64,000 nucleotides of DNA, from assembly GCA_963705505.1 (NCBI GenBank), contig CAVPJU010000006.1:160001-224000 (forward strand), read 5' to 3'. The notes below the pieces were generated by a model. The model did not search any database and had not been told where the DNA came from. It was given only the letters and a program-made list of their open reading frames with translations. The position numbers and the translations under genes are program-made. Positions 22,360-33,139 of this stretch are shown here, one piece after another (position 1 is the stretch's first letter; the number at the start of each line of letters is the position of its first letter). The stretch comes from an uncultured bacterium. GTDB lineage: Bacteria; Desulfobacterota_D; UBA1144; Nemesobacterales; UBA2774.

Positions 22360-23121
22360 TCACTGAATCGTGGAGTTGTCCAGGTTTCCCGAGGCAAAAC
22401 TCCTAATATCGTCCCACTTCTGCAAAAAAGCCTTAAGCGATTCGTTGGCTTGACGGAAATTTCCCTTATCTAATAAACCGAGGAACTTCCACGCCTCTTC
22501 CACGGAGCGCTCACGTTCCAGGCTGTAGGGATTGATAACGGAGCAAAGCTCGCCGTAGTTTAGAACGATGAATCCGCTGGGATCGAAACCTGAAAGCCAT
22601 GCTTTAAGATCGGCCAGCCCTTTCGATAAATTGTCCTCGATATAAATATAGGCGGAATTATCCAGGTCTCCGGGGCGTCCTTTTACGACATCAGCAAGTA
22701 TGCCCTCGGCTTCGCTTAATCTGTCGAGGGCCGTGTGTACTCTTGTATCGTAATGAAGGGCGTTAAACCCCCAGTGGGTATAGAGGGTTTGCCTATCTTC
22801 CTCGCTGAAAAGTAAAAACCATTCGACCGGGATGAAATTCTCGCAAAAAAACAAGTTCGCCTTAGACTGGAACGGAGCTACATAGTATTTACCATCTTCA
22901 TCCTTCGTAAAAAAGCAGTGCTCTATCTCTTCCGCAGCGATTCCAAGGTTATTGGACAGGGCGTTTACGAAAGATTCGTATTCATTTCCGAACCAGACAC
23001 CGAACGGAGAGGTCGGACCGCCCCAATATAGTTCATAAAATTGAACATACTCGGACCAGTAATAGCTTTTATCCGTCATACTGTTCAGAGGTTCATACAA
23101 AACCAGAGTACTCTTGGCCAT
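22360..23121 (-). CDS. Hypothetical protein
   Basis: 253-aa ORF with no overlapping competitor; family not recognised. Confidence 0.75.
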   Translation of the reverse strand: MAKSTLVLYEPLNSMTDKSYYWSEYVQFYELYWGGPTSPFGVWFGNEYESFVNALSNNLGIAAEEIEHCFFTKDEDGKYYVAPFQSKANLFFCENFIPVEWFLLFSEEDRQTLYTHWGFNALHYDTRVHTALDRLSEAEGILADVVKGRPGDLDNSAYIYIEDNLSKGLADLKAWLSGFDPSGFIVLNYGELCSVINPYSLERERSVEEAWKFLGLLDKGNFRQANESLKAFLQKWDDIRSFASGNLDNSTIQ

Positions 23122-23326: not shown

Positions 23327-24043
23327 ATGGCAGAAATTTCACTGGAAGAAATGATAAGAGAGGCAAAAAAAAGGAAGATAGACCTCGGAACCGACCCGGA
23401 AAAAACAATTAAAATCTGCTCTAGACTCGGTCTCATACCCAAACCGAAGAGAAAGAAATTTACAGTGGGCGGGGAAACAAAGACACATCTTGTATTTCCC
23501 GATGCGACTCTGGAGAAGCTCGCGCACATTAAGGCTCTGAAATCGGAAGGACTTACACTCGAAGAGATCAGAGACAGTTTTGCGCTCGAATATGTCCAGG
23601 GCGCATTAAAGGACCTGATCAACAACGCCGACGACGAGAAGGTAAAAGAGCTCGCCAATATTATCAGCAGGGAGAAAGAGCTCGAATCGATCGTAGAGGC
23701 ACCGCTCGTCTATCTGATAGAAGGAATGTCCCCGGAAGAAGCTAAAAAACTGCTCACATTATTCTTCGGTGTCGGGTATTATGCCCTCCTCGAAGCCCAG
23801 AAGTCGATCGAGGAGTTCAAGTTCAACGATGCCAGGAAGTCCCTGTTTAAAGCGATCTTCTATAACTCTATCGCCATATTGAGACTCGCGAGGACTACAG
23901 GCGACACAAAGCTCGAAGAAACCGCTTTCGAGCTGTATGAAAAGACCGTGATCGAGCCCATCGGGAGGGCGAGCGAACGAGTCAGGAAAGAATTCATCAA
24001 TTCCTTCGAAAAATATCTAAAAGACAAAGGCTTAACGAACTAG
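23327..24043 (+). CDS. MerR-like HTH protein with unknown helical C-terminal domain
   Basis: TIK..SRLGLIPKP...FPDATLEKLAHIKALKSEGLTLEEIR resembles the MerR wing and dimer helix; TTGACA at 23291 upstream. Confidence 0.65.
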   Translation: MAEISLEEMIREAKKRKIDLGTDPEKTIKICSRLGLIPKPKRKKFTVGGETKTHLVFPDATLEKLAHIKALKSEGLTLEEIRDSFALEYVQGALKDLINNADDEKVKELANIISREKELESIVEAPLVYLIEGMSPEEAKKLLTLFFGVGYYALLEAQKSIEEFKFNDARKSLFKAIFYNSIAILRLARTTGDTKLEETAFELYEKTVIEPIGRASERVRKEFINSFEKYLKDKGLTN

Positions 24044-24075: not shown

Positions 24076-24330
24076 TTATCGGATCCTTTCCGAAATGTAA
24101 TCCGAAATACTCTCAATAGTCTCGAAAAAATCCGGGGTTATCTCGCTTTCGTCGAGCTTCACCCCGAACTCCTCTTCAAGCGCGACCAGAAATTCGAGCC
24201 TGGCAACGGAATCGATACCGACGCCGTACTCGATTAAAGGAAAATCGTCCGCTATCCCGCCGGGGTTCATTTCTTTGAGAACATTCTCGGCAAGGACTCT
24301 CCTTACCCTCTCTCTCGTATCCTCACTCAT
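24076..24330 (-). CDS. Acyl/peptidyl carrier protein
   Basis: GIDSV phosphopantetheine site, LEEEFGV, acidic 84 aa. Confidence 0.9.
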   Translation of the reverse strand: MSEDTRERVRRVLAENVLKEMNPGGIADDFPLIEYGVGIDSVARLEFLVALEEEFGVKLDESEITPDFFETIESISDYISERIR

Positions 24331-24351
24331 TGGCCCGTCCCAGATTTGTTA

Positions 24352-25830
24352 TCATTTTAATTGCTCCCTTAGTATTTTACCTGTAGGGCTTCTCGGAAGC
24401 TCATGGCGAAACTCAATAATCTGAGGAATCTTATATTCAGTAATCCTGTCCCTGCAATATTCCAACACCTCCCTTGCCTCGATAGGGCGTCCTGCAACGA
24501 TCACGGCTTTCACGCGCTCATTCCCTGATCTGTCTTTTATGCCCAGCACCGCGGCCTCGGTTATATCCGGATGCTGGGAGAGGAGATTTTCCACCTCAGT
24601 CGGGTCGACCTTAAATCCCCCTACATTGATAAGAAACTTCCTTCGCCCCGTGATGTATATGTACCCCTCTTCGTCTATCCTCCCCAAATCCCCCGTGAAG
24701 TAGTAGCCGTTTCTGAATACCCTCGCTGTTTCTTCCGGGAGTCCGTAATAACCCGTCGTCATGGACGGGCTTCTGACGGCGATCTCGCCAAGCTCCCCGG
24801 CGGCGGCTTCTTTGCCGTCCTCATCAAAAACTTTGACTATGACGTTTTTGACCGGCCTTCCGACAGAATTAAACCGTTCCCCGATTTCATCCTCATCGCA
24901 GAGGTTAATCGATATGACTCCGGTCTCGGTCGAGCCGTAAAGCTGTCTCGGGTAAATGGAGAATTTCTCATGGAACCTGTAAAAGGTGCGCTCCTCCAGA
25001 GGGGCGCCTGCGGAAATAACCAATTTGAGTGACGACAGATCTATCGGTGAGGCCAAGTACGTTTTCGACAGTACGTCGAGCATAACGGGGACCGATGGGA
25101 AGGCTGTTATGGACTCCTTCACGAGGATATCGAGGACCCTGTTCCTGTTAAAATCGCCTGAAACGACCACGGCAGCCCCTGCTTTCACCGCGCTTATAAA
25201 GTTCCCGAAGCCGTAGGTGTGAGAAATGGGAACCGTGAAGAGTACCCTGTCCTTATGTGTCCAGCCCACGGTTTCCGTATGGTTGTCTGCGAGGGCCGAG
25301 AGGTTATAGTGGGTCCTGGCCACCCTTTTAGGTTTTCCGGTCGAGCCTGTTGAATAGAGATATATAGCCTCATCTTCCGGTCTGACATTAGAGTCGAGGG
25401 GCTGCCCGGAGTATTCTCCGGGAAATTTCCAGGAGGCTTTGTCCCCCTTTATCGAGACGGCTTCTATCCCTCTGCCGGATGAGGCTTCCGCAGCCGTGTT
25501 TATCAAATCGTCCCCGGTCACAAGAAGTCTCGCGCCCGAATGCTCCAGATAAAAACCGACCTCGCCGGTCTTAAACGAGCTGTTGATAGGGACGGACACC
25601 GCCCCGGACAACGACACTCCGAAAACCGCCGTCACGAACTCGATAGAGTTGGGAAGGAATATCGCGACCCTGTCACCCTTCACAACTCCGCGGGAGGAAA
25701 GAAGGGACGCGAACGCCCGGGCACTCCGGACAAGGTCTTCATACGTGACGCTTATGCCGTCTTCGATAACGGCAGTGCGGGAGGAGAATTTCTCGGCCGC
25801 AGATAAAAAGAGTCCTGATAGCGTATTCAT
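24352..25830 (-). CDS. AMP-dependent synthetase/ligase (class I adenylate-forming enzyme)
   Basis: YSTGSTGKPK, SAGAPL, YGSTETG, TGDLG, LPRSPTGK; RBS overlaps the upstream gene's stop codon. Confidence 0.92.
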   Translation of the reverse strand: MNTLSGLFLSAAEKFSSRTAVIEDGISVTYEDLVRSARAFASLLSSRGVVKGDRVAIFLPNSIEFVTAVFGVSLSGAVSVPINSSFKTGEVGFYLEHSGARLLVTGDDLINTAAEASSGRGIEAVSIKGDKASWKFPGEYSGQPLDSNVRPEDEAIYLYSTGSTGKPKRVARTHYNLSALADNHTETVGWTHKDRVLFTVPISHTYGFGNFISAVKAGAAVVVSGDFNRNRVLDILVKESITAFPSVPVMLDVLSKTYLASPIDLSSLKLVISAGAPLEERTFYRFHEKFSIYPRQLYGSTETGVISINLCDEDEIGERFNSVGRPVKNVIVKVFDEDGKEAAAGELGEIAVRSPSMTTGYYGLPEETARVFRNGYYFTGDLGRIDEEGYIYITGRRKFLINVGGFKVDPTEVENLLSQHPDITEAAVLGIKDRSGNERVKAVIVAGRPIEAREVLEYCRDRITEYKIPQIIEFRHELPRSPTGKILREQLK

Positions 25831-25846
25831 GCCGGGCAAATTCTCC

Positions 25847-26890
25847 CTATGGATATATTCCCGAACCGCCGAGCGATTCCGTTTCCTCAAAACCGAACAT
25901 TATATTCATATTCTGCACAGCCTGCCCCGACGCCCCTTTGACGAGGTTGTCCAGAGCGACGACCGTAATCAATCTATCCGACAGCAAGGTGAAACCCAGT
26001 CCACAAACATTCGAATACCTTACGTCTTTAATGCCGGGGAATTCATCGGATGCGTATACCCTGACAAAGGGCTCGTTCCCATAATATTTCTTGTAGAGCG
26101 CGGAAATAAACTCAGAAGTACGCATTTCTTTAAGCCGGGAATAAATCGTCGTCAATATGCCACGGTTAACGGAAACCGTGTGGGGCATGAAGCTTATGCC
26201 GACATCCGTCCCGGAAAAAGGTGAAAGCACTTCTTCCATCTCCCGCCCCTGATTATTCGAGGCGTTTAAATTAATCCTCACGTTTTCATTCGATTCGGGA
26301 AAATGGTGCTCGAGGGTCGGAGCGCGTCCGCCTCCTGACTCGCCTCCCTTGGCATCGGCGACAATAGAGCCCGCGTCTATGAGCCTCTCCGATAGAAGCG
26401 GGTACAACCCCAGTATGACCCCTGTCGCATAGCATCCTGGGTTCGCAACCAGTCTTGAATTACTTATATCCCTTCTGAAGATCTCTGGAATGCCATACAC
26501 GGCATCACTAATGTAATTTTTATATCTATGACCGGTATTGAAAAGCTTTTCGTACACATCGGGATTTTTAAACCTGAAATCCGCGCTGAAATCTATGACC
26601 CGGACCCCGGCGTCGAGAAGCCTGGCCGTAAAATGCATCGAAGAGCCGTGAGGAAGGCAGGAAAAGGCCACATCCACCTTACCCAGGTCTTTCAGTCCCG
26701 ATACGCTTCTGCATTCCAGATCCGAAAATCCCCTTAGATGGGGGAAGACTTCGTATATTTTCCTTCCTGAGAACTTCTCAGAAGTAAGCCATTCTATGTT
26801 TACGCCGGGATGGTTGACCAACAGCCTGAGCAGCTCCGCCCCTGTATAACCTGTGGCTCCAAGAATCCCAGCTTTAATCTTTACGCCCAT
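25847..26890 (-). CDS. argC: N-acetyl-gamma-glutamyl-phosphate reductase family protein (divergent substrate motifs)
   Basis: GATGYTG, LPHG, IDFSADFR, ANPGCY (catalytic Cys), DNLVKGASGQAVQNMN; the H-x-H-x-P-E motif is absent. Confidence 0.8.
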   Translation of the reverse strand: MGVKIKAGILGATGYTGAELLRLLVNHPGVNIEWLTSEKFSGRKIYEVFPHLRGFSDLECRSVSGLKDLGKVDVAFSCLPHGSSMHFTARLLDAGVRVIDFSADFRFKNPDVYEKLFNTGHRYKNYISDAVYGIPEIFRRDISNSRLVANPGCYATGVILGLYPLLSERLIDAGSIVADAKGGESGGGRAPTLEHHFPESNENVRINLNASNNQGREMEEVLSPFSGTDVGISFMPHTVSVNRGILTTIYSRLKEMRTSEFISALYKKYYGNEPFVRVYASDEFPGIKDVRYSNVCGLGFTLLSDRLITVVALDNLVKGASGQAVQNMNIMFGFEETESLGGSGIYP

Positions 26891-27084: not shown

Positions 27085-27955
27085 ATGGTTAAATTACTGA
27101 ATAAAAATCTTTTCCTTTTGATATTGCTTACTTTTGGTTTCTTTCATGTCGTCCAGTATGTGGAGCTGCGGCGGTGGGGGCGGGGGAGGCGGAGACAACA
27201 AAACAAGGATCAACGGTACGGTTCAACAGGTAATCAGCGGGCCGGTTTCGGACATAAAGGTCACTATATTTGAGAACAACAACAAGCGCGCTTCAACCAA
27301 AACAAACCAATTCGGGGAGTTTTCTCTGGGGTTCAAGCCTAATGCCGATACTGTTGAGATCGAGTTCAAGGGCTCCAATTATACCCTCTCGAGGTTTATA
27401 TCCGTCACGCGCGACAGTGATGTCGAATTCGATGTCACGCTGCAAATCGATAGCAGCAATATCATAGTTAACACCTGGACAGTCTCCCAGAACCCCGTAC
27501 ACGTAAACAACGATGAATTAATTTTCAACGACCTCGAAGCCGATTTTAATATCGACGGCAACGGGAACGATTGTATCAGGGCGCAAGGGGACGGCCGGGT
27601 GGAAATCACCGCCATGAGTATATCTCTCAGTGACTGCAAAGAGGGTATAAACGCCGAAAACTCCGCGACTGTAATATTCGAGTCTGATGAAGACATAAGG
27701 ATAAGCGCAAAGAAAAACGGTATCAAATCAAACAACAACGCAGTCGTCAGGATTGCGCAGACCGTTACGCCCATCGATAACAATATCTTTATCGCATCCT
27801 TAAATGAAAACGGCATAAGGGCTGCGGGTTCATCAGAGGTCATAATAGATCCTGAGAACACCTGTACGATCAGCGGGGGGACAAGTAAACCCGCAATAAA
27901 CCAGAGCGGGGCGGCGACAGTCGACCCGGACGGATGTACCCTTAGTAACGGGTGA
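27085..27955 (+). pseudogene. Putative lipoprotein (poly-Gly linker, beta-helix-like repeats) with a +1 frameshift in its signal peptide
   Basis: RBS GGAGG plus ATG 27085 MVKLLNKNLFLLILLT; deleting one T of CTTTTGG (~27132) joins it to LVSFMSSSMWSC-GGGGGGGG. Repeats: DCIRA, EGINA, NGIKS, NGIRA. Confidence 0.7.
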
Positions 27956-31202: not shown

Positions 31203-32228
31203 TCAGATACCGGGGCTGATTATAACTTTTATAGAGTCCCGAGCCTCTTCCACCATGCGGAACCCTTTCAGGGTCTCGGACAAGGGAAGCCTATGAGTTA
31301 CCATATCGAGCACGTTAACCCGTTTAGCCCGTATTAGCTCAAGGGCTATGGCGAGATCGGAAGGGGAAGCCGCATACGAGCTCACGGTCTTTATCCCCGA
31401 CCACCAGAAGTCGTTATAGGGGATCGTAATTGTTGCAGCAGGCCCCGAAGGGGCGAAAAATAATATCGTCCCGCCCGGCTCCGCGAGCTTGAGGGCGCCT
31501 TCGATCGCCGGTTGAGCGCCCGTGCATACGATAACCATATCGGCAAGGCGTCCTTCGTTAAGATTCCGCAAATAGGAAGCTATGTCCTCGCCTGCATGCA
31601 CCGTGTGATCAGCGCCGAAATCAGACGCGGCTTTGAGCCTGAAATCGCTTATATCGGTCGCAATGATACGTCCCGCCCCCTGAGCCCTCGCAAGCTGGAT
31701 GTGGAGGAGCCCCGTTATACCGCTCCCCATCACAAGCACGCAGTCGGTGATCTGAAATCCGGCGAGCCGCTGCCCGCGCACGACGCACCCGAGGGGCTCG
31801 ACAAAAGAGGCCTCGTCGTATGAGACCCCGTCAGGGAGCCTGAGCACGCCCCTGTCCACGTTGATGGCGGGTATTCGTATATATTCCGAAAAACCGCCCG
31901 GATCGAAATGGGTCGTCCTCAAGGTCCTGCACGCGGAATGGTTCCCCCTGAGACAGTAAAAACAGGTGTTGCACGGGACGTGGTGAGTGGCAATGATACG
32001 GTCGCCGGGCCTGAATTTTTCGACACCCTGGCCTATCTCGACTACCTCACCGGCCACCTCATGGCCGAGCACCAGAGGAGCCTTCGGAAGGCGGTACCAT
32101 TCCATGAGGTCGCTGCCGCAGATACCGCTTGCATGGACCCGCATGAGTATCTCGCCCGGACCTGTCCCGGGAACGGGCATATCCTCGAGCCGTATATCTC
32201 TGTTGTTATAGTACATGGCGACACGCAT
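31203..32228 (-). CDS. Zinc-dependent dehydrogenase (iditol/threonine DH-like MDR)
   Basis: GICGSD, GHE, C-x2-C-x2-C-x7-C, VEPLGC, GSGITG. Confidence 0.92.
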   Translation of the reverse strand: MRVAMYYNNRDIRLEDMPVPGTGPGEILMRVHASGICGSDLMEWYRLPKAPLVLGHEVAGEVVEIGQGVEKFRPGDRIIATHHVPCNTCFYCLRGNHSACRTLRTTHFDPGGFSEYIRIPAINVDRGVLRLPDGVSYDEASFVEPLGCVVRGQRLAGFQITDCVLVMGSGITGLLHIQLARAQGAGRIIATDISDFRLKAASDFGADHTVHAGEDIASYLRNLNEGRLADMVIVCTGAQPAIEGALKLAEPGGTILFFAPSGPAATITIPYNDFWWSGIKTVSSYAASPSDLAIALELIRAKRVNVLDMVTHRLPLSETLKGFRMVEEARDSIKVIISPGI

Positions 32229-32284
32229 ATTCTTGGGAGCGCTCCGGGAACTTGCTTTTATGGAAACTTGCCGGGTTTTAGCTT

Positions 32285-33100
32285 TTATACGCTTGCTACC
32301 TTCTTGGATTCCTCGTTCTTTATGGATAAGAAGAGGTCGTGCGCCTGTTTGGGCTTATTATTTTCGTGGACTATCGACCGGATCGCCCTGATTACGGCTA
32401 CAGGGTGGTCGTTCTGCCATATGTTCCTGCCCATGTCCACACCGACGGCGCCCTGCTGAATTGCATTATAGGTCATCTCCAGAACGTCCATCTCGGTTTC
32501 TAATTTAGGCCCTCCGGCAATCACTATGGGCACGGGACAGCTCGTTGTAACCTTCTCGAACTCCTCGCAGTAATAGGTCTTGACTATATGAGTGCCAAGC
32601 TCGGCGCAAATACGGCAGCAAAGAGCGAGATACCTCGAGTCCCTTTTCTCGAGCTCCTTTCCGACGGCAGTAATGCCCAGCACGGGAATTCCGTATTCCT
32701 CACCCTGATTGACGAGCTCCGCGAGATTGAGGAGCGTCTGGCGCTCATGCTCACTGCCCACGAATACCGATATCCCGACGCCCGCGACATTCAGCCTAAT
32801 GGCGTCCCTGAGGGAAGTAGTAAGGCCCTCGTCCGAAAGGTCGGGGCCGACGATGCTCGAGCCGCCCGAGACCCTTAAAACCACATTCGCGCACGATTCG
32901 GGGTCTACGGAGCTCCTGAGCACTCCTCTGGTCAGCATGATGGTATCCGCATACGGGAGCAGGGGTGTTATCGTGTCCCTGGGGACCTCAAGCCTGTGTG
33001 TGGGGCCCAGGAAATACCCGTGGTCGAATGCGACCATGACCGCCCTCCCCGTCCGCGGGTTTATTATCCTCGCCATTCTGTTTTTCATTCCCCAGTCCAT
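32285..33100 (-). CDS. lsrF: LsrF-like thiolase / class I aldolase family
   Basis: MDWGMKNRM, AFDHGYFLGP, VKTYYC, PIVIAGGPK, GVDMGRNIWQ. Confidence 0.9.
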   Translation of the reverse strand: MDWGMKNRMARIINPRTGRAVMVAFDHGYFLGPTHRLEVPRDTITPLLPYADTIMLTRGVLRSSVDPESCANVVLRVSGGSSIVGPDLSDEGLTTSLRDAIRLNVAGVGISVFVGSEHERQTLLNLAELVNQGEEYGIPVLGITAVGKELEKRDSRYLALCCRICAELGTHIVKTYYCEEFEKVTTSCPVPIVIAGGPKLETEMDVLEMTYNAIQQGAVGVDMGRNIWQNDHPVAVIRAIRSIVHENNKPKQAHDLFLSIKNEESKKVASV

Positions 33101-33139
33101 AACCGTAACACCTCTCATTCGTTGGAATTTATCACACAA

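Follow-up and report, generated by a model that had tools for sequence, protein, structure and literature searches.

Three adjacent genes on the minus strand of a 64,000-nucleotide stretch of an uncultured bacterium (contig CAVPJU010000006.1, positions 160,001 to 224,000; this whole stretch is called the window below) encode an ArgC-like reductase, an ANL-family adenylating ligase and a stand-alone phosphopantetheine carrier protein. We propose, at a probability of roughly 0.6, that this trio is a discrete three-protein carboxylic-acid reductase in which a protein of the ArgC fold would serve as the thioester reductase. The residues that hold the phosphate in ArgC are lost while the nucleophile and the NADPH site are untouched, and the only linked activator is an adenylating ligase with a carrier; together these suggest a pathway of activation, loading and reduction. 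Fetched loci, genomes and proteins are cited by internal labels (L, locus; G, genome; P, protein). The features of the trio, all on the minus strand, are:

25847..26890, minus strand: ArgC-like reductase, open reading frame of 347 residues, member of the paralog clade with Gln at position 214
26429..26443, minus strand: NPGCY with the nucleophile Cys153
26324..26356, minus strand: DAKGGESGGGR, residues 179-189, the altered SGxSGAG substrate-channel motif, placed by alignment
26240..26278, minus strand: remodelled loop RINLNASNNQGRE, residues 205-217, in place of the ArgC Y-x4-HRH-x-PE, placed by alignment
25831..25846, minus strand: junction of the ArgC-like and ligase genes, 16 nucleotides, with GGAGAA read from the sequence as the ligase ribosome-binding site
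24352..25830, minus strand: ANL-family adenylating ligase, 492 residues; the frame is open back to a TTG at 25890 (512 residues)
24076..24330, minus strand: stand-alone phosphopantetheine carrier protein, 84 residues
24208..24210, minus strand: codon of Ser41, the predicted phosphopantetheine attachment site (GIDS), from the GxDS motif

The three open reading frames lie head to tail in the order ArgC-like, ligase, carrier. The stop codon of the ArgC-like gene (TAG, 25849-25847) is directly followed by GGAGAA, with the ligase ATG at 25830 ten bases on, and 21 nucleotides separate the ligase stop (TGA, 24354-24352) from the carrier ATG at 24330. As ligase orthologs are 488-497 residues long, the ATG at 25830 is the likely ligase start. 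The downstream neighbour, encoding a MerR-like protein (23327-24043), is convergent and the upstream neighbour, encoding a lipoprotein-like protein (27134-27955), is divergent; hence the trio forms a self-contained unit. No arg gene was found among the open reading frames of the 18-34 kb region of the window, and the trio's neighbours include no AA_kinase or ATP-grasp gene. Rfam gave no match in the window or in the 5' region of the operon, neither riboswitch nor leader, and promoter and terminator scans of the locus returned signals at chance level only. The initial annotation, made from the letters alone, had described the reductase stop as overlapping the ligase ribosome-binding site, the carrier as following 21 bp after the ligase and the surroundings as free of other arg genes, and all of this was borne out.

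Against the NCBIfam argC model TIGR01850 the ArgC-like protein scored 368.2 bits (367.8 in the genome search), the equivalog cut-off being 233.6. Pfam assigned Semialdhyde_dh (PF01118) and Semialdhyde_dhC_1 (PF22698), ArgC 1vkn was the PDB match (E 9.5e-79), and the identity to the canonical ArgC of the same genome was 46%. Alignment to solved ArgCs and to this canonical copy showed GATGYTG, the NADPH-binding GxGxxG motif, and NPGCY to be intact, as is the C-terminal DNLVKGASGQAVQNMN block of ArgC. Two segments are altered. The canonical DSKSGVSGAGR reads DAKGGESGGGR, and the canonical AYKVGEHRHMPE reads INLNASNNQGRE, with HRH changed to NNQ. The other two forward frames contain two and three stops across the remodelled stretch, and the alignment is gap-free on both sides of it; a hidden frameshift is therefore not the explanation. 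The same retained motifs (Rossmann and NPGCY), the same altered ones (GGESGGG for SGxSGAG, and the Y-x-H-x-H-x-P-E segment) and the same dismissal of a frameshift had been put forward in the initial annotation, and the alignments agree with it.

The altered positions can be placed on published ArgC structures. In the Denitrovibrio enzyme (DaArgC), C149 is the nucleophile and HRH 208-210 binds the phosphate and the carbonyl; the channel that takes up the branched N-acetylglutamyl side chain is lined by S178, G182, A183, Y203 and L233 (PMC10170137). For ArgC of M. tuberculosis, the probable activator of Cys158 is His219, and the phosphate is held by Arg114, His217 and His219 (PMC12041015). Cys153 of the window protein is equivalent to C149 and Cys158, and in the alignment with solved ArgCs the published DaArgC positions map to window G182, G186, G187, N207, N212-N213-Q214 and T238. 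G186 is the sole match among the five side-chain channel residues (G182, G186, G187, N207, T238), and NNQ stands where ArgC has the HRH that binds phosphate and carbonyl and whose second His activates the Cys. The altered residues are thus those of the published phosphate/carbonyl and side-chain-channel sites, which fits a change of both the leaving group and the acyl group.

The same pattern runs through the relatives of the protein. The 120 best homologs (51-93% identity), referred to as the clade, were compared with 79 canonical ArgCs from many phyla. Cys153 is conserved in 120/120 and 79/79 proteins, respectively, and Arg106 and the glycines of the Rossmann GxGxxG motif are retained in all 120 clade members. 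Position 214, in contrast, is Gln in 118/120 members of the clade and His in 79/79 canonical proteins. His at position 212 and Tyr at position 207, each present in 79/79 canonical ArgCs, remain in 67/120 and 30/120 clade members, and position 213, the Arg of HRH, is variable in the clade. Position 238 is L, V or I in 79/79 canonical proteins; clade members have polar residues there, with T, R, N, Q and S, the five most frequent, making up 110/120. Position 187 is Ala in 78/79 canonical ArgCs but Gly (70/120, as in the window) or Ala (46/120) in the clade; at position 182 the canonical proteins have Ser (74/79) and the window protein has Gly. A Cys at position 78 is invariant in the clade (120/120) and present in 5/79 canonical sequences. 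Positions conserved to at least 85% in canonical ArgCs and to at most 25% in the clade were only 78, 101, 207, 213, 214 and 238. Among the 150 best representatives at 50% identity, Gln occurred in 11, ten of them within the 12 best matches and the eleventh at rank 32. These residues suggest that the ArgC-like protein has lost the site for the leaving group of an acyl phosphate (Tyr207, His212, Arg213, His214), with the catalytic His fixed as Gln. With this site gone and the channel remodelled, the substrate would be neither N-acetylglutamyl phosphate nor any other acyl phosphate, and the changes in the channel itself (Y207, L238, A187, S182) suggest an acyl group other than N-acetylglutamyl.

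A maximum-likelihood tree was computed from 88 rows (34 clade members, five locus proteins, every third canonical representative and two canonical copies from the phylum), midpoint rooting being used for drawing only. A branch with an SH-aLRT (Shimodaira-Hasegawa-like approximate likelihood ratio test) value of 99 separated 40 rows, 38 with Gln and two with His, from 48 canonical ArgCs. The 40-row side includes all five trio-linked proteins from distant loci, and the genome's own canonical ArgC lies on the other side. The paralogs are one clade of single origin. Source annotations name the clade proteins argC and the organisms as Dadabacteria, Thermodesulfobacteriota or Deltaproteobacteria metagenome-assembled genomes. 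A scan of genome contigs with the ArgC-like protein was swamped by 80 loci with canonical ArgCs (38-46% identical) and did not retrieve relatives of the paralog. Among longer proteins, a search for fusions involving the clade gave none. One candidate fusion, P0311 (784 residues), consists of a benzoate-CoA-ligase-like N-terminal part and a canonical HRH-bearing ArgC joined at a shared HPAVEL; it was rejected as probably a chimeric assembly or gene call.

The host genome contains a second, canonical argC. Two matches lie above the argC cut-off, the window copy at 367.8 bits and another at 450.1 bits in which HRH and SGVSGAG are intact; argB is also encoded elsewhere in the genome, and no arg genes stand beside the window copy. 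The search for such a canonical copy had been named in the initial annotation as a check. The genome further encodes asd, proA, proB, panD and hemA. Since these standard genes are present, the trio is not a substitute for a missing semialdehyde or beta-alanine step, and a role as stand-in for the supply of N-acetylglutamate semialdehyde, aspartate semialdehyde, glutamate 5-semialdehyde, glutamate 1-semialdehyde or beta-alanine was rejected.

The ligase matched AMP-binding (PF00501, 267.7 bits) and AMP-binding_C (PF13193) in Pfam. It fell below every NCBIfam cut-off, the best being PRK06187 with 399.8 bits for a cut-off of 476, and its best PDB matches were FadD13, FadD5 and feruloyl-, oxalyl- and malonyl-CoA synthetases. 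The motif that follows the P-loop is SHTYG. Amino-acid adenylation domains carry FD at this position, the Asp binding the alpha-amino group. Given SHTYG and the CoA-synthetase relatives, the ligase substrate is likely a carboxylic acid without an alpha-amino group at the activated carboxyl.

The carrier matched PP-binding (PF00550) with 33 bits, the cut-off being 20.8, and its best PDB matches were type II peptidyl carrier proteins and PltL; it is closer to type II peptidyl and aminoacyl carriers than to the acyl carrier protein of fatty acid synthesis. An ortholog profile scored the trio carrier at 128 bits versus 26 bits for the genome's AcpP. G36, G38, D40 and S41 are invariant in 27/27 orthologs. 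Three PP-binding carriers were found in the genome: AcpP, a protein with AMP-binding, PP-binding and acyltransferase domains, and the trio carrier. One phosphopantetheinyl transferase was found, of the Sfp type with AASDHPPT_N and ACPS domains. All three genes of the trio are under purifying selection: within the genus, the ratio of nonsynonymous to synonymous substitution rates (dN/dS) had pairwise medians of 0.156 (reductase, 44 pairs), 0.145 (ligase, 34 pairs) and 0.237 (carrier, 36 pairs), locus L160 in this set being a duplicate of L114.

Conservation of the linkage was assessed in 30 genomes of the order by comparing the open reading frames of 30 paralog loci with the window genes. The ligase adjoins the ArgC-like gene in 29/29 informative loci, L128 ending at a contig edge, and the carrier follows the ligase in 28/29, being absent at L143. 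In the genome of the latter (G027) a carrier ortholog lies on another contig (77 bits, versus 28 for the AcpP-type match). Linkage of the trio persists down to 40% identity of the ArgC-like protein and with different flanks (L134, L139, L141, L142). Metagenome contigs were searched with a degenerate pattern specific to the clade, which picked out 16 of the 30 trio loci and none of the canonical ones. It returned 42 stretches, 39 of which had the window protein as best match and three of which were canonical HRH-bearing ArgCs. Twelve of the 39 end at a contig edge; in the remaining 27/27 the ligase adjoins the ArgC-like gene, and the carrier is present in 19 of the 21 loci with DNA past the ligase, L165 and L188 being those without. 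Part of this metagenome set consists of records that also appear among the genome loci (e.g. L160, L161). All metagenome loci have flanks typical of the lineage, and no clade member from outside it was found among the metagenome stretches.

Across 120 genomes of the phylum, which the sources name Dadabacteria, the ligase and the ArgC paralog show matching patterns of presence and absence. A ligase ortholog was found in 84 and was absent from families f6 (0/6) and f9 (0/19). At least two ArgC-type matches were found in 82 of these 84, and the other two (G049, G053) have one, beside the ligase. For 67 of the 84 the listed matches include one of ArgC type beside the ligase on its contig, and these are all of the genomes in which both genes were listed on one contig. 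Of the other 17, eight had no second match among the matches listed, four have the genes on different contigs, and five (G003, G009, G018, G023, G040) show a wider gap, broken genes or a fragment only. Among the 36 genomes without the ligase, 33 were listed by name; a single ArgC-type match was found in 31 of them and none in G054, while G043 (85% complete) carries the paralog alone. In family f9 each of the 19 genomes has one ArgC-type match. Linkage and co-occurrence had both been named as checks in the initial annotation, and with the canonical argC described above its proposal of a split carboxylic acid reductase on an ArgC fold survived them and is supported, with loading, thioester transfer and aldehyde release as the steps that we infer.

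A few copies of the locus are irregular. In G009 the ligase is split into two open reading frames (L115, 8051-9528). In G023 (C14, 58906-62407) stops occur alike in the ArgC-like gene, the ligase and the MerR-like gene, which suggests a degraded or poorly assembled region; this copy was not used as evidence of joint decay. The metagenome contig L187 (1-2045) carries a ligase, an ArgC-like fragment, a ligase fragment and an ArgC-like gene, a partial tandem repeat that may be an assembly artefact.

As to the chemistry, each step and its direction below is a prediction from sequence. The ANL ligase would adenylate a carboxylic acid that bears no alpha-amino group at its activated end and would load the acyl group, bound as a thioester, onto the phosphopantetheine of the dedicated carrier, a protein that the Sfp-type transferase of the genome would prime. 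The ArgC-like protein would then take the acyl group onto Cys153, where reduction by NADPH would release an aldehyde; the nearly invariant Gln214 may hold the thioester carbonyl. A more far-reaching statement is that the ArgC-like protein is the first ArgC-clade enzyme switched from acyl phosphates to carrier-protein thioesters, that with ligase and carrier it makes up a naturally split carboxylic-acid reductase on a GapDH-superfamily fold, that the change of His to an invariant Gln implies another way of making or bypassing the Cys thiolate, and that the trio supplies a lineage-specific aldehyde building block in Dadabacteria. For this statement as a whole we would give even odds.

Several observations weigh against the proposed acid reductase. 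With the Cys-activating His lost, slower formation of the thioacyl-enzyme is expected, and no replacement base was identified in the sequence. Two proteins nested deep in the Gln clade, P0050 and P0075, again have His at position 214 (HNH and HRH). Arg106, the phosphate-binding Arg of ArgC, is retained throughout the clade, so that an anionic group may still bind; this anion could be the pantetheine phosphate or a carboxylate of the substrate, and the residue could also accommodate an acyl phosphate. The best family and structure matches of the ligase are CoA ligases, so CoA could be the acceptor instead of the carrier, and the carrier is non-adjacent in three lineages (L143, L165, L188). No conserved aldehyde-using enzyme near the trio emerged from the neighbourhood comparison. 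The genomes compared are kin, and the counts given above are not counts of independent events; the host genome is 93.6% complete, which limits statements on its gene content. None of the 20 RNA runs listed contains the stretch, and reads were not mapped. As a separate observation on P0050 and P0075, a single-base change would suffice to turn the Gln into His.

The CoA-ligase kinship and the three non-adjacent carriers would also suit a reductase supplied with acyl groups by acyl-CoA or by the ligase itself, in the manner of LuxE and LuxC, with the carrier serving another step such as a later product or an acyltransferase. A relative of the fold does use CoA thioesters (PMC12041015), and the protein with AMP-binding, PP-binding and acyltransferase domains indicates that carriers of this genome serve acyl transfer. 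However, the carrier adjoins the ligase in 28/29 and 19/21 informative loci, it is retained elsewhere in the genome when unlinked (G027), and it is of a dedicated type distinct from AcpP (128 versus 26 bits), so that we regard this arrangement as unlikely. It is quite improbable that the trio runs in the oxidative direction, with an acylating aldehyde dehydrogenase capturing an aldehyde as acyl-S-carrier and the ligase salvaging free acid onto the same carrier for acyl transfer. In its favour, semialdehyde dehydrogenases can in principle work in both directions, a single acyl-carrier would be the meeting point of the two enzymes, and the lack of a conserved aldehyde consumer near the trio would be in keeping with it; but ArgC-family enzymes are established as reductive with NADPH in vivo (PMC12041015), and no acyltransferase or condensing enzyme is linked to the trio in the 30 genome loci compared, nor in the eight of them scanned with Pfam.

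The loss of the Cys-activating His in 118/120 clade members, together with the variability of Tyr207, His212 and Arg213, might instead mark the ArgC-like protein as a catalytically impaired pseudoenzyme, a scaffold or a sensor of NADPH or acyl-carrier beside a working ligase-carrier pair. Against this, Cys153, the NADPH glycines, Arg106 and Cys78 are each retained in 120/120 members, the dN/dS (0.156) is as low as that of the ligase, and the fixed Gln214 (118/120) is a specific replacement and not decay; we hold a pseudoenzyme to be a poor prospect. A second ArgC isozyme, still acting on N-acetylglutamyl phosphate or another acyl phosphate and adjacent to ligase and carrier through inherited synteny without function, is very improbable. 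The score above the argC equivalog cut-off, the retained Arg106 and the argC label in every source annotation speak for it, as does the fact that the surrounding genes as a whole (MerR-like gene, PolA, sigma factor) keep their synteny in the lineage. Yet the phosphate-binding HRH is gone, and the trio lacks a linked kinase. Gains and losses of the paralog go with those of the ligase, a pattern that the MerR-like gene (f9 18/19, g14 0/36) does not follow although it is just as syntenic, and paralog and ligase are adjacent even with other flanks (L134, L139, L141, L142).

The proposed acid reductase can be set beside known systems. Canonical ArgC has the same fold and length at 41-46% identity to the window protein, and the NADPH motif, the NPGC nucleophile, Arg106 and the C-terminal DNLVKGASGQAVQNMN block are common to both. 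It differs in that here HRH is replaced by NNQ (xxQ clade-wide), Tyr207 and Leu238 are replaced and an invariant Cys78 is new; moreover, the window gene is a second copy, linked to ligase and carrier and not to arg genes. LysW-type carriers are zinc-ribbon proteins with an acidic C-terminal EDWGE, and genes for the kinase LysZ and the ligase LysX are linked to theirs. The LysY/ArgC enzymes of LysW-dependent pathways (PDB 5EIN, 5EIO; match E 5e-46) resemble the window protein as ArgC-fold reductases acting on a carrier-tethered substrate. In those pathways, however, the substrate is bound as an amide through the C-terminal Glu of LysW, an acyl phosphate made by LysZ is reduced, and His209 is retained (PMC12041015). 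The trio has a phosphopantetheine carrier (PF00550 with GxDS), not LysW, as the initial annotation had stated; its neighbours include neither an AA_kinase nor an ATP-grasp gene, and the His is gone.

Carboxylic acid reductases (CAR), fungal Lys2 and the adenylation-thiolation-reductase (A-T-R) units of nonribosomal peptide synthetases combine an ANL enzyme with a PP-binding carrier, and the trio has both (PF00501 with PF13193, and PF00550 with Ser41 in 27/27 orthologs); the same adenylate-load-reduce logic, with an acyl-S-pantetheine intermediate on the way from acid to aldehyde, is proposed for the trio from its gene make-up. In contrast to the trio, they are single polypeptides whose reductase (R) domain, of the short-chain dehydrogenase/reductase (SDR) fold, reduces the thioester directly without an enzyme Cys (PMC12041015). 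No fused short-chain dehydrogenase reductase was found in the trio, where the reductase is a separate gene of PF01118/PF22698. Archaeal malonyl-CoA/succinyl-CoA reductase of the Asd family (PDB 4DPK-4DPM) is a case in which a semialdehyde-dehydrogenase fold switched from acyl phosphate to thioester, so that such a switch is possible on this fold, although this enzyme derives from Asd and not ArgC, uses CoA and not a carrier protein, and retains the activating His (PMC12041015). The similarity of the ArgC-like protein to 4dpk is weak (E 2e-8 over residues 5-176). LuxC-LuxE and the cyanobacterial acyl-ACP (acyl carrier protein) reductase (AAR) share with the trio the multi-protein activation of an acid or acyl-ACP and its reduction to an aldehyde. 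LuxC is of the aldehyde dehydrogenase type, LuxE is an acyl-protein synthetase and AAR forms a family of its own, all with folds unrelated to ArgC. A Pfam scan of the trio gave no match to the LuxC, LuxE or AAR families.

A full-text literature search did not turn up any description of an ArgC paralog that accompanies a ligase and a carrier. The 'argC' entry arcF in the arcuflavin cluster table was set aside, the available part of that source giving no functional information on it (PMC3949708). The logic of activating, tethering and reducing is known; what is new is the predicted ArgC-fold thioester reductase with His changed to Gln.

Around the trio, the MerR-like gene (23327-24043, plus strand) encodes 238 residues with a weak match to the MerR helix-turn-helix (PF13411, 26.8 bits). 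It is convergent to the carrier in 26/29 loci and, at 57-94% identity, better conserved than the trio. It was rejected as a partner as its distribution is independent: it occurs in 76/120 genomes, including 18/19 of f9 without the trio, and in 0/36 of g14 though the ligase is present in 33/36. Beside it, an open reading frame at 22360-23121 (minus strand, 253 residues) without Pfam or NCBIfam match is syntenic across the order at 43-86% identity. Past polA, 4-6 kb upstream of the trio, a Zn-dependent alcohol dehydrogenase (341 residues) and a class I aldolase of the DeoC/LacD family (284 residues) lie in tandem at 31203-33139 (minus strand); no link of this pair to the trio was found. At L127 a Zn-dependent alcohol dehydrogenase lies between the trio and a pair formed by an aspartokinase and a LeuA/CimA-like synthase. 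It is 32% identical to the window enzyme and not its ortholog, and it was not seen in other loci, so that it was rejected as the aldehyde consumer. In two families (L127, 10257-13087; L136, 3969-6793) the aspartokinase and LeuA/CimA-like pair is co-directional with the trio and immediately upstream of it, and with these two loci only the case for a partnership was too thin to accept. In several genera two genes of about 130 and 360 residues without Pfam match stand between the ArgC-like and lipoprotein genes, divergent from the trio (L125, 8087-9776; L130, 8102-9773; L121, 8169-9813; L135, 11193-12865); they are absent in the window. The protein with AMP-binding, PP-binding and PlsC-type acyltransferase domains (Aas-like; L148, 1-2412, plus strand; G000:C10 around 643370) contains the only other non-fatty-acid-synthesis carrier domain in the genome.

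If the proposed acid reductase is correct, the ArgC fold would be a third structural solution for the reduction of acids to aldehydes with ATP and NADPH, beside the SDR-type R domains and LuxC. A few substitutions, in the HRH loop and at two channel residues, would then turn an acyl-phosphate reductase into a probable thioester reductase, and small three-part acid reductases would be of practical interest for biocatalysis. Databases name the proteins by homology (argC, long-chain acyl-CoA synthetase), so that metabolic reconstructions credit this uncultured phylum with a second arginine gene, which is probably not an arginine gene at all.

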